A DNA stretch of 64,000 nucleotides from assembly GCA_009015555.1 (NCBI GenBank), contig GCA_009015555.1_3613.1; one strand, 5' to 3'. Below the pieces are notes generated by a model. That model worked only from the letters and a program-made list of their open reading frames with translations. It was not told the origin of the DNA and made no database searches. Positions 1,863 to 64,000 of this stretch are shown here, piece by piece. The position numbers and the translations under genes were made by a program. Positions within the stretch are counted from its first letter, which is position 1; each line of letters starts with the position of its first letter. Source of the DNA: a phage.

Positions 1863-1867
1863 TTAAC

Positions 1868-3218: not shown

Positions 3219-3241
3219 CGCATTGATAATGAAGGTGTTCT

Positions 3242-3505: not shown

Positions 3506-3517
3506 GAGGAGATTCGC

Positions 3518-6500: not shown

Positions 6501-6742
6501 ATAACGTGACGGTTACCGCCGATACCGTTATCGGTTCCATTGCTCAGTTGCCGGGCGCGGGGACTTACTTCTTCTATATCGAGCAGGATGCTGTTGGGGG
6601 CCACACTGTGACCTTTGACCCAGCTTACCTCAAGATTGGTGATGGAGAAGTGGCTACAGCGCCAAACGCAATCTCTCTGGTCCAAGTAATCTACCGTGGT
6701 AAAGGTTCAATCTTCGACTACGTGATTCTTAACCGAGGTTAA
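3518..6742 (+). CDS. large tail fibre / adhesin with tandem ~30-aa repeats (1074 aa)
   Basis: GTG start after a purine-rich RBS. About 8 copies of TGx(T/S)GVxADVDGxDIxPRSV. Followed by a terminator. Confidence 0.8.
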   Translation: MSSNTDIIALLSSDADKAVDQIIEDSKRLHIVVNGTGTEQAVAEDGSLLPSVRKALIDNLYFKTPPLPWRNGGSVNEFNQLYSFTDVSGNTTWWYAPGATVSNPVVMRDSPINDGKFKVFLDKTNIADIYAPLNSPNFVGNPRVPTPAPGDNSQTVPTTGWVQSEMQDLEDQIIASMKGDFENITVRNDAVLKDTYISGEFIVTSDKLSAASAEATFRRIRVVGTADNTEIAFEQNTAPPAGASTKTNIKPYTMSTGILTIDQLKGKSAQIGDVAVATDSLNVDGYMRGDYLHLEGNNRNSTTRPQLIVDGIAEINTLRVTGTIEGVKADVDGLDIHPRSVIIDEGLTVGKDTSLTGKLTVGGTTKVNNLEVTGTLSGVAISVDGKDIKPRSVNTGNLVATGNVQISGTTTATGKITTQDLEVLGTLTANLDLSGSDLSVDNINVAETATIKDLVVTGKTTGVKGDVDGTLIKPSSVQATGLVSAGSLSTNANASIGGNLTVTGEFRPASMETGAVEADSLVVNGNISQTTGTTSVVNLVVTGTTTGVTADVNGDDILPRSVTTTAGVKVGTTLDVTGKTTLGDVDFTGVVTGLELDLSQKNVTVKSIAAVDPSAFGDVTTDNLTNSEKIITQDIQVLGDILDAAGNPVNTFDVTGKDILPNSVQSATFIRGKTLDISDGSTLRGPVEFRNGLTVTLGDIMSPQGKATFNDVQVNGALTDANGNVIGSVESIKGKDIEPRSVVATVSVQAPRLQSTGDILGQSATITNNVSAGTLGVSGLTNLAETRVNAKLTGQSTEFETLLLKRVAGQDTPRLVVQGDSDLQGDLNVSGTITGIVDLTAQDIRMNSLVLAEDLSARNITGSGTVQGANGIFGQSSQPTTQYGLQSLSSAKVDKNLDVGGNLRVTGAITGSMDFTGKDITPRSVAASAGIGAVDITASGTTTTKDLVVTGTTSFAGDSVFNAGQVKSKLFTVDIGTDITSGSGSWIPDGLQSVYNVTVTADTVIGSIAQLPGAGTYFFYIEQDAVGGHTVTFDPAYLKIGDGEVATAPNAISLVQVIYRGKGSIFDYVILNRG
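4440..6330 (+). repeat. in-frame tandem coding repeats inside the fibre gene
   Basis: Repeated protein motif V(T/D)G(K/D)DI(x)PRSV at irregular spacing; DNA copies are diverged. Confidence 0.6.
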
Positions 6743-6745
6743 TAC

Positions 6746-6771
6746 AGCCGCCTTCGGGCGGCTTTTATTTT
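6746..6771 (+). terminator. rho-independent terminator
   Basis: AGCCGCC-TTCG-GGCGGCT hairpin followed by TTTTATTTT, directly after the fibre stop. Confidence 0.8.
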
Positions 6772-6780
6772 GGAGGTATT

Positions 6781-7977
6781 ATGTTTCCTTTTGCTATTAT
6801 TCCACCGTTTGTTCTTTCAGGCAAGGAAAAAATCAAGCAGTTTTCGGTTACGTCTTACGACAGTATGGTCCTGACTGATAAGGGGAACCTGTATGTTACA
6901 GGATTCAACCGGGTGGGTGAGCTTGGTGTTGGGGACACAACTAACCGAAATAACCAATGGGTTTTGGTAATGCAGGACGTAAACTGGATTGCAAGCAACC
7001 GTGAGAAGCTGTGGGCAATTAAGAACGACGGTTCCATTTACACCCCGGATCTTCGGTCATCCAGTACAACTGCATATACTTGGCAAATCGACACGGTAGC
7101 ACCTGGAAGTATTGGGGATTTGTCTGGGGATAATATCAAGGAGATTTACAGCGACACAGAGAGCGTATATATCCTCAAAAAGGATGGTTCACTGTGGTAT
7201 CTGGGAAATAACTCTAAAGGCCAAGCTGGAAACGGGGGAACTTCCTTAACCACACGCTTTGTGAAGGTTTCAGATGGTGTGGTATCTTGGTCATCCAGTG
7301 GACCCACTGTTGTTTTCGTGAAAACAGACGGATACTTCTGGGGCTGCGGATCAAATTCCCGAAATATCATTTCCTCTGCTGGCAGCAGTATCACAACCCC
7401 TACCCGGATGTTTAGCACCACCCACGCTGACGGAGGTGTTGTAACAGATTACACGCTGGCCTCTGACCAAGCGTTTTTGATCAGATATAGTAATGGTAAA
7501 TATCGTACCAAAGGTCTCAATATCGGACAACTTCCTTCAGGGGATGCAAGTCCATACAATACCCTTACGGACGTTCCTGACGGATACACCCCCGGTGATG
7601 GAACGGAGCCTCTGGTAAGCAAAACAGGAGGGGTGTCGGCCTCTGGAACTTGGCCTAACTATAGTGGTCTTTTCTTCTACCATACGGGAGGGAAATTCAT
7701 AGTCACTGGTCAAGCAAGCGGGAGAATTTCCGGGACCAGCCAAACCAGCGGTACACTCTCAAACTGGACCAATGTCGATGCGGCAAGTGACGAGATCCCA
7801 TCTATCAAGGGAATGACCTTCGGACTGGGTTGGGTTGCTGCCTACAACGATACGCAGATTCTGTACTGGGGGTATACGGGAAACTCCTCTGCATATCCGG
7901 TTGTGGGATACCTAATGCCCGGACCTTCAAGGCTTGAATATGTGGCACGTTTTGCAACCCCGCCGATCGAGGCATAA
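6781..7977 (+). CDS. RCC1-repeat (beta-propeller-like) protein, probably fibre-associated
   Basis: GGAGG RBS. Repeated G-x-N-x-x-G-x-L/A-G-x-G motifs (GFNRVGELGVGD, GNNSKGQAGNGG, GLNIGQLPSGD). Confidence 0.65.
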   Translation: MFPFAIIPPFVLSGKEKIKQFSVTSYDSMVLTDKGNLYVTGFNRVGELGVGDTTNRNNQWVLVMQDVNWIASNREKLWAIKNDGSIYTPDLRSSSTTAYTWQIDTVAPGSIGDLSGDNIKEIYSDTESVYILKKDGSLWYLGNNSKGQAGNGGTSLTTRFVKVSDGVVSWSSSGPTVVFVKTDGYFWGCGSNSRNIISSAGSSITTPTRMFSTTHADGGVVTDYTLASDQAFLIRYSNGKYRTKGLNIGQLPSGDASPYNTLTDVPDGYTPGDGTEPLVSKTGGVSASGTWPNYSGLFFYHTGGKFIVTGQASGRISGTSQTSGTLSNWTNVDAASDEIPSIKGMTFGLGWVAAYNDTQILYWGYTGNSSAYPVVGYLMPGPSRLEYVARFATPPIEA

Positions 7978-8010
7978 TAAAAAGGCACCCTAACGGGTGC
8001 CTTTCTTTTT
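7978..8010. terminator. bidirectional rho-independent terminator between convergent blocks
   Basis: AAAAA-GGCACCC-TAAC-GGGTGCC-TTTCTTTTT: A-tract on one side and T-tract on the other. Confidence 0.8.
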
Positions 8011-53824: not shown

Positions 53825-54097
53825 ATGAAAGACCTGAAGATCACACGCACTATCAGCACCGGGGTAATGTTCTTCGTTCCTCATGACGAAGACCGTTATG
53901 ATGAAATTGAAACCACGATCCTGAATGAGTTTATCGATCTGGATTGCGGGTCTGTCGCGCTTCACACCGATGATGCCGAGTTCTGTCAGTATTACCTAAC
54001 TGCCGACATCGGGGATGAGGAAGAGTTCCACAAGGTGTGCCAGTGGCTTCTGAAGCGTATGGAAGAACTGGGCACCACATTGGACTTCGTATCATGA
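53825..54097 (+). CDS. hypothetical acidic protein
   Basis: 90-aa ORF. Confidence 0.55.
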   Translation: MKDLKITRTISTGVMFFVPHDEDRYDEIETTILNEFIDLDCGSVALHTDDAEFCQYYLTADIGDEEEFHKVCQWLLKRMEELGTTLDFVS

Positions 54098-54366
54098 TCG
54101 CCTACGACAAGTACGGTAAGATGACGCCGGAGTTCCAGGCTTACCAACAAGAGGCTTGGGACAAGCTGCGGGCCATTGCCGGGCAACTGACGAAGCAAGC
54201 CATTGCCAGTGGTGTTTGTCCTAATGCAATGCGGGATACAATGACCAAGGCCATCGAATGCGGCTGTGTTGTTGCAAGCGCAGAGGTCTTCGTCGAAGAC
54301 AATAAGAAGGAAGTGCCTCACAGAGGCTCTCCTGACTGGCACATGGGTCTCGTGAAGGGTCTTTGA
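54094..54366 (+). CDS. hypothetical protein
   Basis: Start MIAYDKY; ATGA overlap. Confidence 0.5.
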   Translation: MIAYDKYGKMTPEFQAYQQEAWDKLRAIAGQLTKQAIASGVCPNAMRDTMTKAIECGCVVASAEVFVEDNKKEVPHRGSPDWHMGLVKGL

Positions 54367-54424
54367 TAAATCATACCGGGAGAGGCTTGCGCCTCTCCTG
54401 ATGCGTTACAGGAGCTTTTAGAGC

Positions 54425-55264
54425 ATGTCCTCATTTGATGCAGCTTTTCTACACGGTGTCGCTGATTATTCCAAGGGCACCAGTCCAACGCCCGAGATCC
54501 CCGATTGGAAAAATTTACAGCGGCGGCTGTCTGATGTCCAAGATACTTTGCTGAAGGAATGGCAGAGCAATGATTCTGTAGCTTCCGACATCAAAGACAT
54601 AGCCAGTGATTTTGACTTTGATTCTTCTCTTGAGGATTTTGTTTACAGGGCCAACGAAAAGATAGATACTTTGCACCGCGCTGTGCGTGATTCGTGTTAC
54701 GATCTGAAGATGAACTGGGACCCGGATGGAATGACCCGTGACCAGATGGTGACCTTTGTCGAAAACTTGAAGGACCAACTTGAAGAGTACCTACCACAAT
54801 CCCACATAATGAAAGATGTGGTTATGGGTTGGTACGGGTACAATGTGGCCCGGTTTGTTCAGGATTACCATGCACTGGGTCAAGCCTGGTTGTCATATAC
54901 CCACGATGATACGTACATGGGGGATCTGGAAGATTCCAAACTTGGAGACTTGACCATCAAGGCGTGTTCGAACGGCATCCTCCGATTATCCACCCAGTGG
55001 GTGCCAGGCTACCTGTACTTTACCAGTGATAATAAGATTATCCTTGGGGGTGAGAAGCACAGTCTTGCCATGAAAGTAGAAGAGTTCAGGACTTTCTTTG
55101 ATGACTGGAAGCGACCAACGGAAGAAGAGATTGCCCTGTTTGATGTCCTCAACCCTGGGGCCAACTGGTCTGTGTTCAGATACTTGAGGGATTACGAAGG
55201 GAAGAACTACATCTCGAACGTGAAACCGATCACATTGCAGGTGTCGGTTAGCACCAAGCTGTGA
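54425..55264 (+). CDS. hypothetical protein (279 aa), last gene before the repeat region
   Basis: Long ORF; no motif recognised. Confidence 0.6.
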   Translation: MSSFDAAFLHGVADYSKGTSPTPEIPDWKNLQRRLSDVQDTLLKEWQSNDSVASDIKDIASDFDFDSSLEDFVYRANEKIDTLHRAVRDSCYDLKMNWDPDGMTRDQMVTFVENLKDQLEEYLPQSHIMKDVVMGWYGYNVARFVQDYHALGQAWLSYTHDDTYMGDLEDSKLGDLTIKACSNGILRLSTQWVPGYLYFTSDNKIILGGEKHSLAMKVEEFRTFFDDWKRPTEEEIALFDVLNPGANWSVFRYLRDYEGKNYISNVKPITLQVSVSTKL

Positions 55265-55440
55265 TATTTGTGGGCCAAGGACGGCTCAGTTTTCAGATCG
55301 GATTTCGATTTGATATTTGCCTGTGATATTTGCGCCGATATTTGAAATCAGATTTCAATTCGAAATTCAATTTGAGATTTTATTTGAGATGGCCCGCCGG
55401 GCCGGGACTCAGATCAGATTCCTTTTTCAGATTTACTCAA
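55263..55440. repeat. cluster of short A/T-rich direct repeats (GATATTTG / GATTTCGA / ATTTGAGAT)
   Basis: gtGATATTTGtg ... GATTTCGATTTGATATTTGcctgtGATATTTGcgccGATATTTGaaatcaGATTTCAATTCGAAATTCAATTTGAGATTTTATTTGAGAT. Confidence 0.7.
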
Positions 55441-55564
55441 CAATGTACCAGCACACCCGGCCCCGGTCAAGGGCTAATGTACCATAAATGTTACATTAAG
55501 GGGCTTATGCACCACTAACGGCACATATACGTTACAATACGGGAGTTATCTCTGGTCAAAAAAT

Positions 55565-55735
55565 TTGAGGGTCTCGATCGGTTTTTCGTTTTGCCGATCG
55601 TATTCTCTGCCCGCCGGGCCGGACTGGGGTCTCGGTACAGAAAGCAGGGTCTCGATCGAAAACTCAATTTCGAGATCGTATTCTCGATACAGGTACAGGT
55701 CTCCGCCCGGGGTCTCGATCGAGATTTCATTTTCA
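55565..55735. repeat. three ~45-bp direct repeats GGGTCTCGATCG-N-CGTATTCTC
   Basis: GGGTCTCGATCG at 55569, 55647 and 55710, each followed 14-18 nt later by CGTATTCTC; GCCCGCCGGGCCGG blocks in between. Confidence 0.75.
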
Positions 55736-55769
55736 AAAACGTATTCTCAAAATCTATACAGAGGTGAAA

Positions 55770-55895
55770 ATCGAAATGAGAATTTTTATCATTCACGTTA
55801 GGCCCGAGGCGAAATGAGAATCGTTCTCATTTGCAAATTGAAATGATAATTATTCGCATTTACGTAGTTGAATGAGAATCATTCTCATCTCCAGA
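55770..55895. repeat. four palindromic repeats GAAATGAGAAT-n-ATTCTCATTT
   Basis: Four copies, two of them perfect palindromes (AAATGAGAA-TCG-TTCTCATTT; ATGAGAAT-C-ATTCTCAT). Confidence 0.75.
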
Positions 55896-56164
55896 ATAGC
55901 GGGCACCCCCGGTGATTGTCTCCGGGTCATTTCTCCCCGCTATGTGTATAATATAGCCCAACCCCGGCCCGGTTGCAAGCGTCTTTACAGTTCTTTACAA
56001 AACTATTTTGGACGAACTACCGGCGATCCACCTTCCGACCTGGCCCCGGTGCCCGGTACGTTAGCCCCGCCTTTTCGCCGTGGGGTGGCGTCTCCTCTCC
56101 TGTATGTGTACATTATGGACTAGCCCCGCCGGGCCGTCAATACCAAAACGAAAATAAATTTTTC

Positions 56165-56193
56165 TTGACCTGCCAGGCAAGCCGGGCCACAAT
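56165..56193 (+). promoter_or_regulatory. sigma70-type promoter
   Basis: TTGACC-17-CACAAT ahead of ORF 56223. Confidence 0.55.
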
Positions 56194-56222
56194 GCAGGCA
56201 CACCAACAAAGGAGATCGACCG

Positions 56223-56555
56223 ATGCAACAGACGAAATATTTTATTGAAGGTAACGCCGCCGCCCACGCCGGGCAGATCCGCGCCTGCCGCTACAATAAA
56301 GAAGAGAACCGCCGCGAATGGTTCGCCGGGTTCGATAGTGTGGATCGTGGTTTCGCCGTGTTTAAGATCCTGCCTGGTCCCGGCGCTGTTAAGCTGGCGG
56401 ACCTGGACCCGGTTTATATTGGTGGCGTCAAGCAATGCCAGGATCGCGCCGTCACACTGCAACAGGCGGACCGCGCCGGGCAATATGTGATCTATGATAT
56501 GACAACGGGCAAGCCGTACCAGGAAAGCACAAAATTAAATTACAAAAAGATTTAA
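56223..56555 (+). CDS. small early-type protein (110 aa)
   Basis: AAGGAG RBS; own promoter; no homolog recognised. Confidence 0.6.
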   Translation: MQQTKYFIEGNAAAHAGQIRACRYNKEENRREWFAGFDSVDRGFAVFKILPGPGAVKLADLDPVYIGGVKQCQDRAVTLQQADRAGQYVIYDMTTGKPYQESTKLNYKKI

Positions 56556-56563
56556 AATAATGC

Positions 56564-56592
56564 TTGACGGGGCCAGCGATAGGCCCCATAAT
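56564..56592 (+). promoter_or_regulatory. sigma70 promoter with GGGGCC...GGCCCC spacer hairpin
   Basis: TTGACG-gGGGCCagcgataGGCCC-CATAAT. Confidence 0.75.
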
Positions 56593-56647
56593 TCACCACA
56601 TAGCGACGCACACCGCGCCGCGCTAACAGAAGAGAGAGACCGTTATC

Positions 56648-57088
56648 ATGTTACATTCAATCAATAAAGAACAACGCCTTTACGTTATGCCTTGCGGGAA
56701 TGGCTTTACCTGCTACGGGTTCGACGTGTTAGACAAACGCGCCCGCGCCTTGTCTGCCTGGTACTTTGAACAGAATCCGCAAGCTATCGCACAGATCCCC
56801 GCCCGGATTGGCACTAAAAAACATTTTAAAGCCTGCCAGGCAGTGATCCAGCAGGTGGGCCGCTATTGCACCCATAAGGGCATTAAATGCCCGGTTGAAT
56901 TGTCGCCACAATTAAAAGGCCTGGAGGGTCGCCGGGTTGAGGTTGTCACCATGTACGGCGAAAAGCGCCGCTTTATTGTGGGCCGTTCTACTGGCTGGCT
57001 GGTCACTCATCTGGAGATCCCCCGCGCCAACAGTAGCGGCGGTATGAGCGCCGAAAAACAATACAAATCTGTAACCGTCATAAAATAA
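56648..57088 (+). CDS. small early-type protein (146 aa)
   Basis: Own promoter and a conserved leader shared with ORFs 60528 and 63616. Confidence 0.6.
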   Translation: MLHSINKEQRLYVMPCGNGFTCYGFDVLDKRARALSAWYFEQNPQAIAQIPARIGTKKHFKACQAVIQQVGRYCTHKGIKCPVELSPQLKGLEGRRVEVVTMYGEKRRFIVGRSTGWLVTHLEIPRANSSGGMSAEKQYKSVTVIK

Positions 57089-57101
57089 TTTAAAAATAGT
57101 A

Positions 57102-57130
57102 TTGACACCGGGGCCACCTGGCCCCATACT
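57102..57130 (+). promoter_or_regulatory. sigma70 promoter with spacer hairpin
   Basis: TTGACA-ccGGGGCCacctGGCCC-CATACT. Confidence 0.7.
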
Positions 57131-57180
57131 ACAAACAAGCCCGGCAAATGGTGCCCGGCAAAATCAGAGAGTAAAAGAAA

Positions 57181-57402
57181 ATGGCTAAAGTAACCTATAA
57201 AAAATCACGTGGCATTTCCTCTGTTAACCTGGCGGCGGTTGTAACCCTGCCCGCATACCGTACCCGCGACGAGGCCCGCGCCGTTGCCAGTAAGATCCGC
57301 GCCGCTGGCGTGACCCCGACAACGCCAACCAAAACGGCGGACGGCTGGCGCGTTACCGCAAAGCATAACGGCGGCACACTTTCCCGCAACACTCACCGCT
57401 AA
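57181..57402 (+). CDS. small early-type protein (73 aa)
   Basis: Purine-rich RBS; own promoter. Confidence 0.55.
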   Translation: MAKVTYKKSRGISSVNLAAVVTLPAYRTRDEARAVASKIRAAGVTPTTPTKTADGWRVTAKHNGGTLSRNTHR

Positions 57403-57409
57403 CCAATTG

Positions 57410-57434
57410 CAGGCCCCCGCCGGGGGCCTTTCGT
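57410..57434 (+). terminator. GC hairpin with weak T-tract (possible terminator or processing site)
   Basis: GGCCCCC-GCCG-GGGGCC followed by TTTCGTGT. Confidence 0.4.
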
Positions 57435-57448
57435 GTGGAGTCAGTACC

Positions 57449-57793
57449 ATGACCAAACAGATCCCCGCTGTCCAGATCACGCCGCTTTTCCGTTGCCATA
57501 TCTTTTATGACTGTAATGATCTTGCGGGGCAATGGATCGGCGATACCGATCAACAATATGATTTCCCGGAATGGGACGAACTAAACCGCCGTGTAAGCAA
57601 CGCCGCACACAATGCCGATCCTGATAGCCTGGCGGACGTGGAACACTTCCCCGGCGGGGCCGCTTGCTTTCCTTATATTGAGATCACCGCGCCAACGTGG
57701 GCGCTATGTAAAGCGATGAGCGACGCCGTGATCCGTTGCATCCTGGACAATGGCGGGATCGTCGAACCAAAAGACAACGGAATAAATATTTAA
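57449..57793 (+). CDS. small early-type protein (114 aa)
   Basis: GGAG RBS; no promoter of its own. Confidence 0.5.
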   Translation: MTKQIPAVQITPLFRCHIFYDCNDLAGQWIGDTDQQYDFPEWDELNRRVSNAAHNADPDSLADVEHFPGGAACFPYIEITAPTWALCKAMSDAVIRCILDNGGIVEPKDNGINI

Positions 57794-57812
57794 ATTATTT
57801 TGCTTTTGGGGG

Positions 57813-57841
57813 TTGACGCCCGGCGGCGCTTCCCCCATAAT
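57813..57841 (+). promoter_or_regulatory. sigma70 promoter with GC-rich spacer
   Basis: TTGACG-17-CATAAT, flanked by GGGGG / CCCCC. Confidence 0.7.
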
Positions 57842-57894
57842 ACACCACATAGGGCGACGGAATAACCCGCCGCCAAAAACCAAAAGGTAACAGT

Positions 57895-58134
57895 ATGCAA
57901 ACCGTAATGATTAGCCACCCGGATCACGCTTCAGATTTCTACGCACCGATCTACGCCCCGCTTGAATGGCAACGCCAGGGCCTGCAAAAAACCGCCACGG
58001 GCTATGGCACCAAGATCCCCACGTCCTATATGTTGGACTATCAAGGCAAGCGCCGCCGGATCTATGTTGACCAGTACAGCAACGCCGGGCACACTTACAT
58101 AATGATCAAAGGCGAAAAAATTACAGTTTGCTAA
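57895..58134 (+). CDS. small early-type protein (79 aa)
   Basis: AAAAGG RBS; own promoter. Confidence 0.55.
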   Translation: MQTVMISHPDHASDFYAPIYAPLEWQRQGLQKTATGYGTKIPTSYMLDYQGKRRRIYVDQYSNAGHTYIMIKGEKITVC

Positions 58135-58143
58135 AAATAATTG

Positions 58144-58172
58144 TTGACCGGGGGCCGGGTAGGCCCCATAAT
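58144..58172 (+). promoter_or_regulatory. sigma70 promoter with spacer hairpin
   Basis: TTGACC-gGGGGCCgggtaGGCCC-CATAAT. Confidence 0.75.
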
Positions 58173-58212
58173 ACCAGACATACCAAACAGACAAGAAAAC
58201 GAGGCTTACAAA

Positions 58213-58443
58213 ATGAATCTGACTACTATCGGCGCTAACCAAACCATGATCACCCTGGCCGACGGCTCACAGGTTTTCTTTTCCTACAATACCCCGGTTG
58301 CGGCATACCTGCCCGGCGTGGGCTATGTAGTGACCGCCAAAAAGCACAGCGCCACCACGTCAAAACATGTTAATGCTTGGGCTGGCAAAGGTTGCGACAC
58401 CCGCCCACAGGAATTTTTTGATAATCTCATTAAATCCGCTTGA
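58213..58443 (+). CDS. small early-type protein (76 aa)
   Basis: GAGG RBS; track start 58141 lies inside the promoter. Confidence 0.55.
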   Translation: MNLTTIGANQTMITLADGSQVFFSYNTPVAAYLPGVGYVVTAKKHSATTSKHVNAWAGKGCDTRPQEFFDNLIKSA

Positions 58444-58469
58444 CGTTTGAATTATGCCGGGGTTATAAT
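58440..58469 (+). promoter_or_regulatory. sigma70 promoter with -10 in a hairpin loop
   Basis: TTGACG-18-TATAAT; GCCGGGG-ttataat-TCCCGGC. Confidence 0.7.
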
Positions 58470-58519
58470 TCCCGGCATAGACAAGCGAAAGCAAACAACC
58501 AAACCGAAAGGATCACACA

Positions 58520-58900
58520 ATGAACATTATCAACACTGTAAACGCCGCCGACATCAAAGAAATTTCCGTAACTGGTAAACGTTGGTTCCAGCGTAGCTAC
58601 GGCAACACTTATCACAGCGTAAGCCTGGGGGCGCTGGTATCCGTTGAAGTGGCGGACCGCTTAGGCGCTAACAAGTACGGCAACAAAAGCGGCGACGTGT
58701 GGATCGACCTGGCTTATGTTGGTTTCGCCTATGGTTATGATCGCGGGTTCGAACAAACCGCATTAAGCGCGATGATCGAGGCGGTGAAGGATGCCCCGGC
58801 GGCGTGGCGTGGTATGTCCTACGCTTGCCAGGCGGCGGCGGATCTCGGGGTTGTCTACACTGATAACGTTTATGATGTTAGCCGCAAAAAAGATTTATAA
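58520..58900 (+). CDS. small early-type protein (126 aa)
   Basis: AAAGGA RBS; GYDRGFEQTAL segment loosely resembles GYNREDAAFQEAI in ORF 59264. Confidence 0.6.
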   Translation: MNIINTVNAADIKEISVTGKRWFQRSYGNTYHSVSLGALVSVEVADRLGANKYGNKSGDVWIDLAYVGFAYGYDRGFEQTALSAMIEAVKDAPAAWRGMSYACQAAADLGVVYTDNVYDVSRKKDL

Positions 58901-58906
58901 TTTTGG

Positions 58907-58936
58907 TTGACACGGGGCCGGGTTAGGCCCCATAAT
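58907..58936 (+). promoter_or_regulatory. sigma70 promoter with spacer hairpin
   Basis: TTGACA-cGGGGCCgggttaGGCCC-CATAAT. Confidence 0.75.
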
Positions 58937-58968
58937 ACCCCCACACCAACAGAAAAGAGATTGACACC

Positions 58969-59178
58969 ATGATCAACGAACAGCAAGTAAACGACGTTAA
59001 ACATGAGGCTTACCAGGTGGCGATCCGTAGTGGTTCCCGCGCCGCCTTCAATCTGGTTATTGAGTTGTACCCTGAACAGGCGGAAAATATTTTAATGCAG
59101 GTTTCCGTATTACTGGAAGCAACAAAGCACACCAAATTAAGCGCCGGGATCGATAAGCTGGCAAAAAGTTTAAAATAG
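58969..59178 (+). CDS. small early-type protein (69 aa)
   Basis: AAGAGA RBS; own promoter. Confidence 0.55.
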   Translation: MINEQQVNDVKHEAYQVAIRSGSRAAFNLVIELYPEQAENILMQVSVLLEATKHTKLSAGIDKLAKSLK

Positions 59179-59181
59179 TTG

Positions 59182-59211
59182 TTGACTCTTACCCCGTCCC
59201 GCTGGCATAAT
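59182..59211 (+). promoter_or_regulatory. sigma70 promoter with -10 in a hairpin loop
   Basis: TTGACT-18-CATAAT; GTCCCGCT-ggcataat-AGCGGGAC. Confidence 0.7.
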
Positions 59212-59263
59212 AGCGGGACTGATTAAGAGAAACACCACAAACCAAACGAAGAGAGAAAACATT

Positions 59264-59650
59264 ATGAACGCTACTTACGATTTTTCCAACATGGTTGTAA
59301 CTTCTGGCGACCTGGGCAAGGCCCGTAACCAAAACAATTTTTACAAGGCCGTTCACCTGGTCGGGCTGGTAGACAATGAGATCAAAGATCTGGCGGAGGT
59401 CCGCTTCTACGGCACCGGGAAAACTAACACGGCGATCCTTTGGATTCACTCCCCGATCCTGGGTCTGTATGGTTCGGAGTTTGGCAAGGCTGGCGGCTAT
59501 GGCTATAATCGCGAAGATGCAGCATTTCAGGAGGCGATCCGCAAGATGGGGGTTAAGGGTGACGGATACCATACGCCCCGCGATTTTTTCGAGGCCCTTG
59601 CTAAATATCTTGGGGTTGCTGTATACTCTGTTATTGAATCCCATGCTTAA
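59264..59650 (+). CDS. small early-type protein (128 aa)
   Basis: AAGAGAGAAA RBS; own promoter. Confidence 0.6.
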   Translation: MNATYDFSNMVVTSGDLGKARNQNNFYKAVHLVGLVDNEIKDLAEVRFYGTGKTNTAILWIHSPILGLYGSEFGKAGGYGYNREDAAFQEAIRKMGVKGDGYHTPRDFFEALAKYLGVAVYSVIESHA

Positions 59651-59659
59651 TGGTGTATA

Positions 59660-59971
59660 ATGACAATCGTAACTCTGATTTGTTTAGCACTGGCGGCGCT
59701 TTATTGCGTCGCCACTCACAAAGCCGCACTATGGCGAAAGGGTCAAAAAATGTACGGTTATTTTGAATACGAGTACAAAGGGGAGAAGGGATCAAGCCGG
59801 GACTATGGCGCAATGTGTGAGATCGATATGGTTGGCGCTATGAACTACCGCCAGGAGTTGGGCGCGGTGATCACTTATGAGGTTTACGACTCCTCAGAAG
59901 AGAAGATCGGAGAAATAATCGATCAACGTTACTACATGGAACAACAGCAAAACAAACGCCGGAGAAGATGA
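59660..59971 (+). CDS. hypothetical protein with N-terminal hydrophobic segment (start uncertain)
   Basis: Track ORF; alternative start at MYGYFEYEY; no clear promoter. Confidence 0.4.
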   Translation: MTIVTLICLALAALYCVATHKAALWRKGQKMYGYFEYEYKGEKGSSRDYGAMCEIDMVGAMNYRQELGAVITYEVYDSSEEKIGEIIDQRYYMEQQQNKRRRR

Positions 59972-59973
59972 GA

Positions 59974-60108
59974 ATGATTCACACTAACATTAACCGCGAT
60001 AAACAACCGCGCCGCGCCCGTCTCTCATACGCTGAAGCAGGCGAGCGCCTGCAACGTGAGAAGGCCAACAAACAACAGCGCCGTAAAACGCGCTATAACT
60101 GGGAGTAA
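59974..60108 (+). CDS. tiny Arg/Lys-rich protein (44 aa)
   Basis: Hand-translated MIHTNINRDKQPRRARLSYAEAGERLQREKANKQQRRKTRYNWE; GGAGAAGATGAGA before the ATG. Confidence 0.35.
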   Translation: MIHTNINRDKQPRRARLSYAEAGERLQREKANKQQRRKTRYNWE

Positions 60109-60143
60109 GCGCCCCGGCATGGAAACACCAGGCCAAACAGTTT

Positions 60144-60170
60144 AAACCGCACAGGGGGCCGCTTAGGCCC
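60144..60170 (+). terminator. rho-independent terminator
   Basis: GGGGGCC-GCTTA-GGCCCC followed by TTATTTTTT. Confidence 0.75.
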
Positions 60171-60184
60171 CTTATTTTTTATCT

Positions 60185-60424
60185 ATGGGGTACACAATGC
60201 AAAACCTTTTAACCTTAACAGATTTTATCCGGGCTATGGGGTCCCGTCCGATGGGGTTTAGCGCCCTTTACCTGGTAACCGATGGCAAAGGATACCGCGC
60301 CACCTGCAAAGCGCTTGCCGCCGTTGCGGCCCGCGAAGGGGTCAAGATCTCCACGGGTCAAGCCTTGGTAGTTGACCCGGCGACATTGGCAACGGCGGAG
60401 GCGATCCGGGTCACTGTAAAATAA
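60185..60424 (+). CDS. small early-type protein (75-79 aa)
   Basis: ATG at 60185 or 60197; no promoter of its own. Confidence 0.5.
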   Translation: MGYTMQNLLTLTDFIRAMGSRPMGFSALYLVTDGKGYRATCKALAAVAAREGVKISTGQALVVDPATLATAEAIRVTVK

Positions 60425-60448
60425 TTTAAAATATTTTCATCCTGGGGC

Positions 60449-60477
60449 TTGACGTCCGGCCCCGGTTCCCCCATAAT
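60449..60477 (+). promoter_or_regulatory. sigma70 promoter with GC-rich spacer
   Basis: TTGACG-tccGGCCCCggttcccc-CATAAT. Confidence 0.75.
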
Positions 60478-60527
60478 CTAACCCATAGCGACGCACACCG
60501 CGCCGCACTAACAGAAGAGAGACCGTT

Positions 60528-60962
60528 ATGACTTCCCCAATTTTCCGTATCAAATCAGGTTTATCCGTTTACGCACTGGCTTGCGGCTATATCCAAGAGA
60601 TCGACACAAAGATCACCGGGAAAAATATCCGGGTACAGCTTTTAATGGAACACGGCGCTTTTCACGTCAAGGCACATGATTTTGATGACGTGGGCCGGAT
60701 CGAGTGGGTTGTTGAAGATCAGATCGGCGACGCCCGCACACAATGGAAAGCGCTTGTTAATCAGCTTTTCGGGGAAGTTATCCGCACAATCAAAAAAGAT
60801 AAGCGCTACACCGTAACCCGTGAATTTTCCGGCGACCCTTGCGGGGCCTTGTATGTTACCCGTTTTTGTGGGGAATTTGTAAGCCGTGCCGACACAATCC
60901 CCGGCGCATGGGTAAAAGCCGCCGAACACAACGCCGAAAGAATGAAAAATTATCAAAAATAA
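60528..60962 (+). CDS. small early-type protein (144 aa)
   Basis: Shares the conserved leader with ORFs 56648 and 63616. Confidence 0.6.
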   Translation: MTSPIFRIKSGLSVYALACGYIQEIDTKITGKNIRVQLLMEHGAFHVKAHDFDDVGRIEWVVEDQIGDARTQWKALVNQLFGEVIRTIKKDKRYTVTREFSGDPCGALYVTRFCGEFVSRADTIPGAWVKAAEHNAERMKNYQK

Positions 60963-60964
60963 TT

Positions 60965-60993
60965 GTTGACCGGGGCCGGGTTAGGCCCCATAA
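60965..60993 (+). promoter_or_regulatory. sigma70 promoter with spacer hairpin
   Basis: TTGACC-GGGGCCgggttaGGCCC-CATAAT. Confidence 0.75.
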
Positions 60994-61025
60994 TACCCCC
61001 AGACAAACAAACCGGAGTTAGACCA

Positions 61026-61178
61026 ATGAAACAATATCTTGTAAACATCCCTGGCGTGGCTGGCCCGTTGAAAGTTTATGGCTATGATGAGCAGGACGCA
61101 AGAAAGCGCCTACGTGATCGGGAAGGTTTCGGATCACGCCTCCCACGTGGCACAAAATTTTATTTGCAAAACGCTTGA
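61026..61178 (+). CDS. tiny basic protein (50 aa)
   Basis: GGAG RBS; track start 60963 lies inside the promoter. Confidence 0.45.
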   Translation: MKQYLVNIPGVAGPLKVYGYDEQDARKRLRDREGFGSRLPRGTKFYLQNA

Positions 61179-61203
61179 CGTGTGGTTATGCCGTCGCCTA
61201 TAA
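61174..61203 (+). promoter_or_regulatory. sigma70 promoter with -10 in a hairpin loop
   Basis: TTGACG-18-TATAAT; ATGCCGTC-gcctataat-GACGGCAT. Confidence 0.7.
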
Positions 61204-61257
61204 TGACGGCATAGACAAACGAAAGCAACACCAGACAACCAAACGAGGGTTAAAATT

Positions 61258-61515
61258 ATGTTTGAAGTATTCGCCGGAATGTGTTTTTATGCCGCCGCCG
61301 CTTTAAAACAGTGTGATGATTACACCGTTGAAGCATACGACGATCAGTTAACTTGCGAGATCGTCGCCAACGGCTACCGCCAGGACCCGCGCTGGATTAA
61401 TCCGGCTTGTATCCCTGGGCCGGAAGTTGAAGCAATGCCGGAAGGTGAGCCGCTATTAGAACCGATCCCGGCGGCTAATCACTTGAACGTAAACCCGGCG
61501 CAAAAAGAGTATTAA
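61258..61515 (+). CDS. small early-type acidic protein (85 aa)
   Basis: GAGGG RBS; own promoter. Confidence 0.55.
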   Translation: MFEVFAGMCFYAAAALKQCDDYTVEAYDDQLTCEIVANGYRQDPRWINPACIPGPEVEAMPEGEPLLEPIPAANHLNVNPAQKEY

Positions 61516-61521
61516 AAGCGC

Positions 61522-61551
61522 TTGACGCCGGGACGGTTCCCGGCTTATAAT
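61522..61551 (+). promoter_or_regulatory. sigma70 promoter, CCGGGA...TCCCGG spacer palindrome
   Basis: TTGACG-CCGGGAcggtTCCCGGC-TTATAAT. Confidence 0.8.
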
Positions 61552-61588
61552 CTCAGACATACCAAACAGGCAAATGAGGCCGCAAATC

Positions 61589-61795
61589 ATGACACGTTAT
61601 TTTGTTACTCGCAATGTTTACCGCTTAGAAAATGGCAACGTTTACCGCTGGAGTGGGGCGCGTGGTGGCTGGTTGCACCGTGACGGCTTTACCCCTTCAG
61701 ATCTCACCGATGGGACCGTGATCGGCGCGGTTGAGGTATCAGAAGAGGAAGCAAACCGCCGGATCTCTGAATTGTTAAAAGGCGGTGCAAAATGA
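61589..61795 (+). CDS. small early-type protein (68 aa)
   Basis: GAGG RBS; own promoter. Confidence 0.5.
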   Translation: MTRYFVTRNVYRLENGNVYRWSGARGGWLHRDGFTPSDLTDGTVIGAVEVSEEEANRRISELLKGGAK

Positions 61796-61971
61796 AATCA
61801 TCTTTACTTTTCGCCCTGGTTGACATCGTGATCGGCAATGGTTGCGGGCAACATACATTTATTGCTAACCGCCCCTATCCGCTAAAGTCATTGCAGGCTG
61901 ACGCCCGATTAACAGCGGCACAGATCCGCCGCTACTTTCGGGAACCACACCCGGCAAAGAATGCAAAATAA
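61792..61971 (+). CDS. small protein (59 aa), translationally coupled
   Basis: Hand-translated MKSSLLFALVDIVIGNGCGQHTF..; ATGA overlap. Confidence 0.4.
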   Translation: MKSSLLFALVDIVIGNGCGQHTFIANRPYPLKSLQADARLTAAQIRRYFREPHPAKNAK

Positions 61972-61974
61972 TTG

Positions 61975-62004
61975 TTGACGCCGGGCACCGTCCCGGCTTA
62001 CAAT
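61975..62004 (+). promoter_or_regulatory. sigma70 promoter, GCCGGG...CCCGGC spacer palindrome
   Basis: TTGACG-CCGGGCaccgTCCCGGC-TTACAAT. Confidence 0.75.
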
Positions 62005-62034
62005 GACCCCACACAAACAAACGAGGCTTTAAAC

Positions 62035-62340
62035 ATGCAACAGGCTAACACTCTTTTCATTCTGGCAAACGTAGCGGATCACGTCGTGGCGTCGCTGTCC
62101 AACGTAGCGGGCACCGTCCAGATCATTTGTCGTCATATGGATGACAAAGCGCCGAACCGCTTACAAATCAACGTAGACCGCGACGGGAAAGAATTTGTGA
62201 TCTCTTATGACGCTATCTATAATGGCAACCGGATCACGCAAGCCAAAAGCCAACCGATCCCCGCCGATTTTATCCAGCAAGTGATCGCCGAAATCGTAAA
62301 CGACACGATCCCAGCGGGGGCGCTGTATGAATCCGCATAA
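62035..62340 (+). CDS. small early-type protein (101 aa)
   Basis: GAGG RBS; track start 61972 lies inside the promoter. Confidence 0.55.
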   Translation: MQQANTLFILANVADHVVASLSNVAGTVQIICRHMDDKAPNRLQINVDRDGKEFVISYDAIYNGNRITQAKSQPIPADFIQQVIAEIVNDTIPAGALYESA

Positions 62341-62482
62341 ACTCTTAATCACCAGTTACCCCAGCAAGGCGGATCGCCGTGAAACTTTGGACCGCTTAAC
62401 GCGCTACTATCAGGAGGCCGGGCACAATAAGACAACCGCCCGCGCCCTGGCTAAAAAGCGTTTGCGATTTGGTAAAAATTAG
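62327..62482 (+). CDS. tiny basic protein (51 aa)
   Basis: Hand-translated MNPHKLLITSYPSKADRRETLDRLTRYYQEAGHNKTTARALAKKRLRFGKN; overlaps the upstream gene by 14 nt. Confidence 0.4.
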   Translation: MNPHKLLITSYPSKADRRETLDRLTRYYQEAGHNKTTARALAKKRLRFGKN

Positions 62483-62483
62483 C

Positions 62484-62513
62484 TTGACGCCGGGAACCGT
62501 CCCGGCTTATAAT
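62484..62513 (+). promoter_or_regulatory. sigma70 promoter, GCCGGG...CCCGGC spacer palindrome
   Basis: TTGACG-CCGGGAaccgTCCCGGC-TTATAAT. Confidence 0.8.
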
Positions 62514-62564
62514 CTCTCACATAGCGCGGGGGATGGTCCCCGCATTATCTAAGAGGTTATGAAT

Positions 62565-62717
62565 ATGTTTACTTTGATGACTTGGGAACACGAAACAAGC
62601 TCCCCGATCCGCCGCACTTTTGAAGACCTATGCGCCGCTTATCGCCTGGCGCAAGGCGGTTATTATAAGGCCCAAATCATTGATGAAAACAATGTGATCA
62701 TGTACGAATTTAAATGA
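62565..62717 (+). CDS. tiny protein (50 aa)
   Basis: Hand-translated MFTLMTWEHETSSPIRRTFEDLCAAYRLAQGGYYKAQIIDENNVIMYEFK; AAGAGG RBS 8 nt upstream. Confidence 0.45.
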   Translation: MFTLMTWEHETSSPIRRTFEDLCAAYRLAQGGYYKAQIIDENNVIMYEFK

Positions 62718-62746
62718 TTGACATCCGGCCCGAAAGGGCCGATAAT
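62718..62746 (+). promoter_or_regulatory. sigma70 promoter with spacer hairpin
   Basis: TTGACA-tccGGCCCgaaaGGGCC-GATAAT. Confidence 0.7.
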
Positions 62747-62777
62747 GACCCACACCAACAAAAGAGAGACCGTAAAA

Positions 62778-62984
62778 ATGATTACAATGATTCTGCAAAA
62801 GTCCCGCCTGATTGATGTTACTGTTACCCTGTCCGCTTGCGGTGAATCATCCCGCCGGGCCGATCATTACCAGGTTACCGCTGTAAGCGACAACGGCGCG
62901 ATCCTTCTCTCTGAAGCGACCCCCGCGCTACATGAGGCATTTTTGACCTATTCGAAGTGGAAAGGGCCGGAAGAAATAAAATAA
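62778..62984 (+). CDS. small early-type protein (68 aa)
   Basis: Track start 62718 lies inside the promoter; start taken at MITMILQ. Confidence 0.5.
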   Translation: MITMILQKSRLIDVTVTLSACGESSRRADHYQVTAVSDNGAILLSEATPALHEAFLTYSKWKGPEEIK

Positions 62985-62991
62985 AAAGTAG

Positions 62992-63020
62992 TTGACGGCG
63001 GGGCCGATAGGCCCCATAAT
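62992..63020 (+). promoter_or_regulatory. sigma70 promoter with spacer hairpin
   Basis: TTGACG-gcGGGGCCgataGGCCC-CATAAT. Confidence 0.75.
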
Positions 63021-63052
63021 ACCCCCACACCAAACGAAATAGGATTCACAAA

Positions 63053-63307
63053 ATGTTAAAATTCATCAAATCACTTTTCACCCGCACCGCCCCGGCTTGC
63101 AAGTTGCCACCGCTGGAGGCGCAAGGCGTGATCGCTCGCAAAGTCTCAGAACTGTTTATCATTTCATTGGTTCACAATGGCGGCGACTGTTACGAAATCA
63201 TCGAAATGGGCCGCTACACCAACACCGGATCAAGCCGTGTCCGCTACGGTGAACACCGCGCCCGGAATCATTTTGATTCTGTATGCTGTATGGTTGGTGC
63301 AAAATGA
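63053..63307 (+). CDS. small early-type protein (84 aa)
   Basis: AGGA RBS; own promoter. Confidence 0.55.
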   Translation: MLKFIKSLFTRTAPACKLPPLEAQGVIARKVSELFIISLVHNGGDCYEIIEMGRYTNTGSSRVRYGEHRARNHFDSVCCMVGAK

Positions 63308-63516
63308 TCGCGTTTACCTTTGAGCGCCTGCCGGACACCTCCCCCCGCTGGGGGGAGTGTGAAGAGGTTGTGATCCTTGCCCGCGATGAGGCGCAAGCCT
63401 GGCAGATGTTAGGGGAATATGTAGCGGCGCACACGTTGCCAGCCTGGAAGCTGGCAGAACAAAAGCCAGCCGCGCCCGGCGTGATCTTTTTCACGTCCTA
63501 CACGTTAGGCGTTTAA
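63304..63516 (+). CDS. small protein (70 aa), translationally coupled
   Basis: ATGA overlap with the upstream stop. Confidence 0.5.
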   Translation: MIAFTFERLPDTSPRWGECEEVVILARDEAQAWQMLGEYVAAHTLPAWKLAEQKPAAPGVIFFTSYTLGV

Positions 63517-63533
63517 TCTTTACAAAACTATTG

Positions 63534-63563
63534 TTGACGCCGGGCACCGTCCCGGCCTATAAT
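63534..63563 (+). promoter_or_regulatory. sigma70 promoter, GCCGGG...CCCGGC spacer palindrome
   Basis: TTGACG-CCGGGCaccgTCCCGGC-CTATAAT, followed by the conserved leader. Confidence 0.8.
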
Positions 63564-63615
63564 TCACCACATAGCGACGCACACCGCGCCGCGCTAACAG
63601 AAGAGAGATCGTAAA

Positions 63616-63984
63616 ATGAGCAAATACACCCCGTGGGAACCAATGTATAAAATCAGCCTGGTTGAGTGCAGCAAAAACGAACTGGATGGAATTGTCCGCG
63701 CCGCTACCGCCGTGATCCGGGGTCTTAACTTCAAACACCTGAGATTCAAAGAAGTAAAACAGATTTTCGAGATGCCGGATCACAAGGCCGCTTCCCGCTT
63801 GGGTCTTACTGTAACCTCGCAAGGGCTTTACAAAGATCACGACCTGAAAGGGCCGCATGTTTGGCTTTTGGCTTGCGCCGTGGGCCGTACCATCGCCGAC
63901 ACCATAAAGAGCATGAAAGCGTTACGCGATGCCGCAAAGGCCCGCCGGGCCGAACTGGAAACAATGATCAGCACTAAATGCTAA
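63616..63984 (+). CDS. small early-type protein (122 aa)
   Basis: Shares the conserved leader with ORFs 56648 and 60528. Confidence 0.6.
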   Translation: MSKYTPWEPMYKISLVECSKNELDGIVRAATAVIRGLNFKHLRFKEVKQIFEMPDHKAASRLGLTVTSQGLYKDHDLKGPHVWLLACAVGRTIADTIKSMKALRDAAKARRAELETMISTKC

Positions 63985-63991
63985 AAATAAA

Positions 63992-64000
63992 GTTGACGCC
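63992..64000 (+). promoter_or_regulatory. start of another promoter of the same family, cut by the window edge
   Basis: AAAATAAAGTTGACGCC at the last bases, matching the -35 context of the family. Confidence 0.4.

Follow-up and report, generated by a model that had tools for sequence, protein, structure and literature searches.

The last 7.8 kb of a 64,000-nucleotide (nt) stretch of phage DNA – contig GCA_009015555.1_3613.1 of GenBank assembly GCA_009015555.1, here called the window, to which coordinates refer unless another record is named – carry an array of 24 small genes, all on the + strand and coding for products of 46-146 amino acids (aa), with copies of a compact promoter cassette set between them. 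Across its whole length the array region (56165-64000) shares 95.8% identity with Cronobacter phage PBES 02; it is 95-97% identical to phages CR3 and CR8, and matches the Klebsiella, Enterobacter, and Pectobacterium phages KaOmega, F1M1E, phiTE, and CB7 in pieces at 84-90% identity. According to their records all of these relatives belong to the genus Certrevirus of the subfamily Vequintavirinae, the rV5-like myoviruses, and judged by sequence similarity the phage in the window is itself a Certrevirus, with a genome G+C content of about 50%.

A strict promoter pattern (TTGAC-N17/18-YAYAAT) has 18 matches in the window compared with 0.34 expected from shuffled sequence, and 15 of them lie on the + strand within 56165-63563; a looser consensus scan of positions 54000-64000 returned 34 sites against 11.4 ± 3.3 in shuffles. 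Adding two sites with a single mismatch (57102, CATACT; 62718, GATAAT) gives 17 complete intergenic cassettes, and an eighteenth starts at 63984 and is cut by the end of the window. The -35 hexamers of the complete cassettes start at 56165, 56564, 57102, 57813, 58144, 58440, 58907, 59182, 60449, 60966, 61175, 61522, 61975, 62484, 62718, 62992, and 63534, their spacers are 17 or 18 nt long, and their promoter scores are 9-11 of a possible 12. These 17 cassettes in 7.8 kb compare with a handful of such sites in the remaining 56 kb of the window. All are co-oriented with the genes, one to three of which follow each promoter, and the -35 hexamer starts between -4 and +24 nt from the previous stop codon. 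Gaps that hold a cassette are about 60-105 nt, and the junctions that lack one mostly overlap or measure 9 nt. The 20 nt immediately 5′ of the -35 hexamer are 79% A+T against a regional background of 48.6%, a value never reached in 10,000 draws of 18 random 20-mers (highest draw 62%), and these UP-like tracts overlap the final, lysine-rich codons of the upstream genes. A first-pass annotation, made from the sequence and a list of its open reading frames (ORFs), had described about 18 near-consensus sigma70 promoters adjoining the previous stop codon, preceded by A-rich UP-like sequence, and each driving one or two small ORFs; the array is real and was correctly described, with up to three genes per promoter. 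Its further expectation that the array runs on past the window also holds, as the CR3 array holds about 22 cassettes in the roughly 11.5 kb from record position 80515 to approximately 92000, the distal third being sparser, and ends where convergent - strand genes begin.

The promoter itself has been noted before. Buttimer et al. (2020; PMC7344957) reported a conserved sigma70-like promoter of Certrevirus with the consensus AAAA(N3-4)TGTTGAC(N17-19)TATAAT, at 13 sites in CB7, 21 in CR3, 21 in CR8, and 13 in CR9, concentrated among short hypothetical ORFs in what was termed a "likely early gene region". The consensus core is matched by the window cassettes, and the two are the same element; the TGTTGAC form is exact in five cassettes and most of the others have GCTTGAC. 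That account is confined to the promoter consensus and map positions, and the word 'stem' is absent from its main text; the embedded hairpin, leader classes, and cassette-bounded mosaicism described below are not part of it. Promoters of the same design also stand at operon heads outside the array, within the replication and adjacent blocks, at 16946-16918, 16442-16414, 42792, and 9971 on the - strand and 46811 on the + strand (one example reads TTGACAGCGGGGCCGAAAGGCCCCATAAT); those at 42792 and 46811 have the -10 hexamer in a stem loop. This agrees with the CB7 paper (PMC7344957), in which some sites are near helicase, methylase, and polymerase genes.

From 5′ to 3′, each cassette has an AT-rich UP-like tract, sigma70 -35 and -10 hexamers with a GC stem-loop, a short leader, a Shine-Dalgarno sequence, and a start codon. 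The stem-loop went unnoticed in the first-pass annotation, as did the gene shuffling bounded by cassettes. When folded from 8 nt before the -35 hexamer to 14 nt after the -10 hexamer, all 17 complete cassettes have fold energies of -11 to -21 kcal/mol, with a mean z of -2.6 relative to shuffles that keep both hexamers fixed and p<=0.023 in 15 of the 17. Sigma70-like sites outside the array have no such hairpin (-1.5 to -8 kcal/mol, z approximately 0). Pairing is kept across at least six different stem sequences, including GGGGCC/GGCCCC, GCCGGG(A)/(T)CCCGGC, CGGCCC/GGGCCG, GTCCCGCTG/TAGCGGGAC, and TATGCCGTCG/TGACGGCATA, with TATAGGTCTG and others in relatives. In an arm-swap test, native cassettes fold on average at -14.6 kcal/mol and chimeras with the 3′ half of a different class at -9.0 kcal/mol (Mann-Whitney p=5e-7), whereas swaps within a class give -14.3 kcal/mol. 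Core stems vary hardly at all within orthologous families, and there is one compensatory two-sided change, with G..T in the window copy at 58440 replaced by T..A in the orthologous CR3 copy at record position 82816. We considered whether the GC stems are mere GGCC/CCGG restriction or methylation sites and rejected this; GTCCCGCTG, TATGCCGTCG, and the KaOmega stem TATAGGTCTG contain neither. An Rfam scan of positions 55000-64000 gave no match at E<=1.

The stems take three positions relative to the hexamers. In 11 cassettes the spacer is occupied by a G/C stem of 6-7 bp whose 3′ arm reaches the first base of the -10 hexamer or stops one base short of it. These are cassette 2 (56542-56647; -35 TTGACG at 56564, -10 CATAAT at 56587-56592, stem GGGGCC 56569-56574 / GGCCCC 56582-56587), cassette 3 (57080-57180; TTGACA at 57102, CATACT at 57125-57130, stem 57110-57115/57120-57125), cassette 5 (58122-58212; TTGACC at 58144, CATAAT at 58167-58172, stem 58151-58156/58162-58167), cassette 7 (58885-58968; TTGACA at 58907, CATAAT at 58931-58936, stem 58914-58919/58926-58931), cassette 10 (60944-61025; TTGACC at 60966, CATAAT at 60989-60994, stem 60972-60977/60984-60989), cassette 12 (61500-61588; TTGACG at 61522, TATAAT at 61546-61551, stem GCCGGGA 61527-61533 / TCCCGGC 61538-61544), cassette 13 (61953-62034; TTGACG at 61975, TACAAT at 61999-62004, stem 61980-61985/61992-61997), cassette 14 (62462-62558; TTGACG at 62484, TATAAT at 62508-62513, stem 62489-62495/62500-62506), cassette 15 (62696-62777; TTGACA at 62718, GATAAT at 62741-62746, stem CGGCCC 62726-62731 / GGGCCG 62736-62741), cassette 16 (62970-63052; TTGACG at 62992, CATAAT at 63015-63020, stem 63000-63005/63010-63015), and cassette 17 (63512-63615; TTGACG at 63534, TATAAT at 63558-63563, stem 63539-63544/63551-63556).

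In three cassettes the -10 hexamer lies in the loop of a stem of 9-10 bp: cassette 6 (58418-58519; TTGACG at 58440, TATAAT at 58464-58469, 10-bp stem 58453-58462/58470-58479, z -3.4), cassette 8 (59160-59263; TTGACT at 59182, CATAAT at 59206-59211, 9-bp stem 59196-59204/59211-59219), and cassette 11 (61153-61257; TTGACG at 61175, TATAAT at 61199-61204, 10-bp stem 61187-61196/61204-61213). Cassette 1 (56143-56222; TTGACC at 56165-56170, 17-nt spacer, CACAAT at 56188-56193), the first and weakest of the array, has this arrangement only weakly, with a 5-bp stem (56169-56173/56194-56198, z -1.0). In two others the stem encloses the -35 hexamer: cassette 4 (57791-57894; TTGACG at 57813, CATAAT at 57836-57841) pairs TGGGGG at 57807-57812 with CCCCCA at 57832-57837 around an inner CGCC/GGCG stem, and cassette 9 (60427-60527; TTGACG at 60449, CATAAT at 60472-60477) pairs CTGGGGCT at 60442-60449 with GGCCCCGG at 60458-60465. 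The truncated cassette 18 (63962-64000) reads AAATAAAGTTGACGCC; where complete, in CR3 and PBES 02, it is TTGACG-18-TATACT and lacks a strong hairpin. Genes 3 and 4 are separated by a further GC hairpin, GGCCCCCG-CCG-GGGGGCC, that has no promoter (57411-57429; -19 kcal/mol for a 49-nt segment); it could be an internal attenuator or a cassette remnant.

Taking the +1 position as 7 nt after the -10 hexamer, transcripts are predicted to begin with (C)A(C/T)A, near 56200, 56599, 57137, 57848, 58179, 58476, 58943, 59218, 60484, 61001, 61211, 61558, 62011, 62520, 62753, 63027, and 63570. The leaders, of 23-49 nt, end in a purine-rich Shine-Dalgarno sequence and an ATG, and fall into two classes. Eleven – including those of cassettes 1, 5, and 7 – are short, unstructured, and 71-80% C+A, and the six of cassettes 2, 3, 4, 9, 14, and 17 open with CAUAG (AAGCC in cassette 3) and then have a GC hairpin, the sequence of which varies. 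A 53-nt leader segment recurs at three sites (56585, 60470, and 63556) with 91-98% identity, the cassette 17 copy being 98% identical over 53 nt to that of cassette 2. More generally, the cassettes constitute families of dispersed direct repeats of 41-76 nt with 60-98% identity, and since spacer classes and leader classes combine differently, the cassettes are themselves mosaics.

Placement of the 24 genes relied on the ORF list, on ribosome-binding sites, and on the annotations of PBES 02 and CR3. Gene 1 (56223-56555, 110 aa) and gene 2 (56648-57088, 146 aa) are followed by genes 3 and 4 (57181-57402, 73 aa; 57449-57793, 114 aa), which share cassette 3, and by genes 5 (57895-58134, 79 aa), 6 (58213-58443, 76 aa), 7 (58520-58900, 126 aa), and 8 (58969-59178, 69 aa), each with its own cassette. 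The next three genes are served by cassette 8 as a single transcription unit: 9 (59264-59650, 128 aa), 10 (59660-59971, 103 aa, its N-terminus hydrophobic), and 11 (59968-60108, 46 aa). The one canonical intrinsic terminator of the array follows at 60153-60182 on the + strand, with a stem AGGGGGCC/GGCCCCTT and a T-run, and its orthologue in phiTE is annotated as a terminator. The remaining genes are 12 (60185-60424, 79 aa), 13 (60528-60962, 144 aa), 14 (61026-61178, 50 aa), 15 (61258-61515, 85 aa), 16 (61589-61795, 68 aa), 17 (61792-61971, 59 aa), 18 (62035-62340, 101 aa), 19 (62327-62482, 51 aa), 20 (62559-62717, 52 aa), 21 (62778-62984, 68 aa), 22 (63053-63307, 84 aa), 23 (63304-63516, 70 aa), and 24 (63616-63984, 122 aa). 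Relative to eight relatives, substitutions at codon positions 1, 2, and 3 number 318, 195, and 1166, and codon changes are 991 synonymous and 431 non-synonymous; because this excess holds down to genes of only 46-52 aa, the ORFs are real coding genes. They are under purifying selection yet variable between relatives, each being present in two to eight of the eight.

The products give few clues to function. Matches to PHROG families of unknown function account for 22 of the 24, the only Pfam match is DUF7170 in the 52-aa product of gene 20 (62559-62717), and a PDB sequence search with five of the larger ORFs found nothing at E<0.05. These searches detected no homology to structural or other annotated proteins, in agreement with the first-pass annotation, which recognised no motif in the products and named clear homology to structural proteins among the findings that would count against it. 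Sub-threshold Pfam matches to SPOR, GYD, and RWP-RK were not accepted. The gene 9 product gives a confident structural model that has no structural neighbour by fold comparison; the record of Pectobacterium phage PcCB7V calls its homologue a 'putative acetyltransferase', a name that Pfam, PHROGs, and fold comparison do not support. For gene 24 a possible helix-turn-helix is unsupported, the AlphaFold2 model (pLDDT 54) being too poor for use. Roles in host shutoff, host takeover, or anti-defence, as raised in the first-pass annotation, are putative, and no search result supports a specific host-directed function.

Differences among the relatives are concentrated at the cassettes. In comparisons with eight relatives, 18 of 26 unique homology breakpoints fall within cassette zones, which make up 22.8% of bases (p=6e-7); of the other eight, three are at cassette-free gene junctions and three are within 20 nt of a cassette zone. 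Neighbouring genes differ in their nearest relative, gene 13 being 78% identical to its PBES 02 and CR3 counterparts and 99% to that of CR8, and gene 6 being 83% identical to PBES 02 as against 95% to CB7 and CR9. Divergence from PBES 02 is confined to blocks, in the largest of which (60421-60923) cassette 9 and gene 13 have been exchanged as a unit, and the same unit swap holds relative to CR3. Gene 2 is absent from CB7, and in CR3, CR8, and CR9 an unrelated sequence takes its place, the replacement (56651-57093) running from the start codon to the next UP tract. Gene 20 is likewise missing from CB7, which has in its place a single hybrid cassette: up to a crossover at TTGAC it has the flank that precedes cassette 14, and beyond it the spacer of cassette 15. 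An additional gene in CR8, CR8_136, comes with a cassette of its own and has the repeat AAAAGGTAACAGTATG as its insertion junction, and gene 23 is shared among the relatives only with PBES 02 and CR3. This pattern supports recombination through the cassettes without proving it.

The closest described counterpart is the promoter-early stem-loop (PeSL) cassette of the T4-type phages RB49/phi1, T4/PST, and KVP40/nt-1 (Arbiol et al. 2010, PMC2839356; Comeau et al. 2014, PMC4122927). PeSLs and the window cassettes share a sigma70-consensus promoter with an AT-rich tract 5′ of the -35 hexamer, a G-run/C-run stem-loop that lies between the -35 and -10 hexamers or overlaps the latter, a 3′-terminal Shine-Dalgarno sequence and ATG, and conservation over about 100 nt. 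Both are also clustered in a hyperplastic region of small ORFans in which the insertions, deletions, and replacements of relatives break at the cassettes, so that each sequence-level hallmark of PeSLs – promoter, AT tract, stem-loop, Shine-Dalgarno and start, ORFan cluster, and junctions – is found here. They differ in their carrier, an rV5-like Certrevirus rather than a T4-like phage, and in how they are known: promoter activity, terminator activity, and mini-circles are experimental for RB49/phi1, whereas the window cassettes are known from sequence. In RB49, one PeSL stem-loop reduced expression of downstream lacZ as much as rrnB T1, and the promoter activity of whole PeSLs was so high that clones gained -35 or -10 mutations (PMC2839356). 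Within the literature that could be searched, characterised PeSLs are confined to T4-type phages, although the term also occurs in a paper on a cyanophage (PMC4503421) and in one reviewing haloarchaeal tailed viruses (PMC3950731).

The promoter hairpin seems to be particular to the genus. The Vequintavirus EmilHeitz/Bas49, from the same subfamily, has a homologous small-ORF region (locus L028, record 77315-91695) with a gene 9 homologue (37% identity) and sigma70-consensus promoters before small ORFs, but all eight promoters examined there lack a spacer stem-loop (-1.5 to -8 kcal/mol, z approximately 0); the hairpin is thus a genus-level addition that the promoter does not need. The leader design of CA(C/T)A followed by a GC hairpin is shared (for example CACACAGGCGGGAAAACTTCCCGCC), and as EmilHeitz has the leader hairpin without the spacer hairpin, the former appears to be the older. 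Nucleotide similarity to the cassettes was not detected outside Certrevirus except for a short partial match in Salmonella phage SSBI34, and in IMG/VR the exact GGGGCC-type promoter is found almost exclusively in Certrevirus-like contigs. Three other IMG/VR contigs (L016 at 6508, - strand; L021 at 5558, - strand; L022 at 1650, + strand), of 43-45% G+C and with no BLAST match to the window, have one TTGACA-N-GGGGCC-loop-GGCCCCATAAT promoter each among hairpin-less consensus promoters, which could equally reflect convergence or cassette spread.

We therefore read the array as the proximal 8 kb of an approximately 11.5-kb accessory, presumably early, gene region of Certrevirus built from PeSL-type promoter/stem-loop cassettes, and put the probability of this reading at about three in four. 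We infer early timing, promoter strength, hairpin function, and the mechanism of recombination; of these, an early role may reasonably be supposed. Because the promoters are unaided sigma70 consensus sequences with UP tracts and Certreviruses encode no RNA polymerase (PMC7344957), unmodified host sigma70 RNA polymerase would fire all of them directly after DNA entry, and each small gene would thereby be expressed individually. Being located upstream of the start of its own promoter, the spacer hairpin would be present only in read-through RNA, where it most likely attenuates or terminates transcription, or protects the 3′ end of the upstream message, or both; the A/U-rich -10 sequence (U)AUAAU directly after the hairpin would serve as the weak-hybrid tract. 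Folding the hairpin into the next promoter would keep gaps under about 100 nt and insulate neighbouring units, and the cassettes may provide the anchoring homology by which related phages gain, lose, and swap single promoter-plus-gene modules.

Several observations weigh against this interpretation or limit it. A literature search found no expression time course for any Certrevirus or member of the Vequintavirinae and no Certrevirus transcript data, so that early timing and start sites are predictions. Data on the array region are lacking in the phiTE paper, its pseudo-ToxI locus being elsewhere at 106.7 kb, and a T4-late-type motif (TATAAATA) occurs once in the window, at chance level, and so provides no temporal contrast. 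None of the 17 promoter hairpins passes an intrinsic-terminator scan requiring at least 5 T in 8 nt (only 60153-60173 does); they are followed by (T)ATAAT or leader sequence with no U-run, and the three stems with the -10 hexamer in the loop have no weak tract 3′ of the stem at all, so that efficient termination is doubtful, at least for those three. Among the terminators annotated in phiTE only the one at 60153 coincides with an array feature, and the promoter hairpins are unannotated there. With dinucleotide-preserving shuffles the short GGGGCC...GGCCCC fragment is individually non-significant (z -0.2), and the case for the hairpin consequently draws on the aggregate and the arm-swap test. 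Mismatches in stem variants over nine genomes count 7 G.U and 11 A.C, a tally contaminated by spurious outer helices that does not separate a hairpin acting in RNA from one acting in DNA. Finally, breakpoints at gene boundaries are partly expected whatever the mechanism of recombination, because selection removes broken genes.

The inverted repeats might instead be operators at which a dimeric phage or host regulator switches all early promoters off, or on, together, the hairpin potential being incidental. They do sit between the -35 and -10 hexamers, precisely the place for a repressor to obstruct RNA polymerase, a large lytic phage would be expected to shut off its early promoters in a coordinated way, and the commonest stem, GGGGCC/GGCCCC, occurs in 6 of the 17 cassettes. 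We nonetheless consider this improbable, since the stems have kept their complementarity but not their sequence, a pattern that binding by a sequence-specific protein would leave unaccounted for: there are at least six unrelated stem sequences, their position relative to the hexamers varies, and the loops range from 4-8 nt in the compact spacer and -10-loop stems to 19-20 nt where the -35 hexamer or the whole core is enclosed. A palindrome outside the cassettes, TGAGAAT-N-ATTCTCA, is also the better operator candidate. Little credence attaches either to the sites being constitutive or middle-class promoters in a repository of accessory genes with no temporal specialisation. Hairpin promoters do stand at a few other operon heads (16946, 42792, and 9971 on the - strand and 46811 on the + strand), and sigma70-type promoters are reported to be spread over the rV5 genome (PMC3606486), but their density is far higher in the array than in the other 56 kb of the window, consensus sigma70 promoters with UP elements are those first used by unmodified host polymerase, and in the rV5 paper the structural genes are proposed to have a T4-late-like motif of their own (PMC3606486).

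The concentration of breakpoints at cassettes, one junction being at the -35 hexamer beside the stem, also fits stem-loops that are structure-specific recombination signals, similar to integron attC sites or targeted by a phage nuclease or recombinase, by which cassettes are moved as small circles and transcription is affected only secondarily. In RB49/phi1, ORFs flanked by PeSLs do give rise to mini-circles, the crossover lying within the loop or next to it (PMC2839356), and the identical TTGACA-GGGGCC-loop-GGCCCCATAAT promoter is present in single copies in the three IMG/VR contigs dissimilar to the window. The junctions here, however, lie in shared sequence (TTGAC, AAAAGGTAACAGTATG) and at no fixed position in the hairpin, which fits ordinary homologous recombination between repeats of 41-76 nt, and no recombinase associated with the array was identified, although none was specifically searched for; we judge such signals unlikely. 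A broader proposal, that promoter hairpins mark a general, lineage-independent system of mobile cassettes in lytic phages, with attC-like stems and circles, which has arisen in or spread independently into the rV5-like Certreviruses, is also unlikely.

The first-pass annotation compared the array with the SPO1 host-takeover module and the T5 pre-early region, in which dense, strong host-type promoters precede many small genes whose known products act on the host. The SPO1 module lies in the terminal repeat, and the T5 pre-early region belongs to the 8% of the genome that is injected first. The dense promoters before small genes are indeed shared, but the array products have no detected homology to annotated families, and the comparison of location does not carry over: Certrevirus genomes are reported to be circularly permuted and headful-packaged (PMC7344957, PMC3475682), with BAL-31 and read-depth data for CB7 and phiTE pointing to the permutation, and this speaks against a terminal repeat or first-step-transfer segment. 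We view the SPO1/T5 comparison as a loose analogy; the T4-type hyperplastic regions with PeSL cassettes are the closer match.

As the promoter array was already known for Certrevirus, and the cassette concept for T4-like phages, no new category is opened; new are the presence of PeSL-type cassettes in a non-T4 lineage, the hairpin geometry with its kept complementarity, and the cassette-bounded mosaicism. If the proposed early PeSL-type region is confirmed, such cassettes would not be peculiar to T4-likes and would represent a recurrent means by which large lytic phages pack, insulate, and exchange small accessory genes. The cassette motif would serve as a cheap signature for locating the fast-evolving accessory and early genes of the genus, which are plausible host-takeover or anti-defence candidates, and the 17 predicted starts and the hairpins ending on the -10 hexamer give precise predictions for 5′ and 3′ transcript ends. 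Recombination between cassettes also predicts which genes are dispensable and how variants originate, which is relevant for Cronobacter and Pectobacterium biocontrol phages.

Going by the annotation of PBES 02, the window outside the array consists of tail-fibre genes on the + strand (1-8000), a replication block on the - strand (approximately 8000-44000) that includes PolA, primase/helicase, PIF1 helicase, and methylase genes, and a + strand block reaching 55264 with HD phosphohydrolase and MoxR-type ATPase genes. Between this block and the array is a 900-nt non-coding stretch (55265-56160) that by its sequence looks like an origin or complex control region. It contains short GATTTC/GAAATT-type repeats (55285-55433), three copies of a 40-nt unit (GGGTCTCGATCG...CGTATTCTC) spaced 63-78 nt apart (55568-55748), and GC-rich ACCCGGCCCCGGT motifs.

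The palindrome TGAGAAT-N-ATTCTCA (7-1-7), with 12 strand-hits in the window against 0.11 expected, clusters in the non-coding DNA on either side of the array: four copies lie upstream at intervals of 29-38 nt (55776-55888), and five just past the array end in CR3 (locus L002, 16615-17169; record 92614-93168). Single copies are at 59968-59984 in the window and at 13743 and 15013 in the CR3 locus. Its core agrees with GATAATCATTATC, the core of the E. coli Fur box, at 11 of 13 positions, and several half-sites are exactly TGATAAT; the palindromes could be bound by the host Fur protein or serve a phage regulator as its operator. Two sigma70-like promoters on the - strand, 162 nt apart (56140-56112, TTGACG-17-CATAAT; 55978-55950, TTGCAA-17-TATATT), diverge from the array and have a 34-nt repeat in common (55933-55966 and 56095-56128). 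Each is followed by a CACATA(G/C) start, as in the array leaders, and both point into the palindrome cluster with no convincing ORF downstream, so it is possible that they yield a non-coding RNA.

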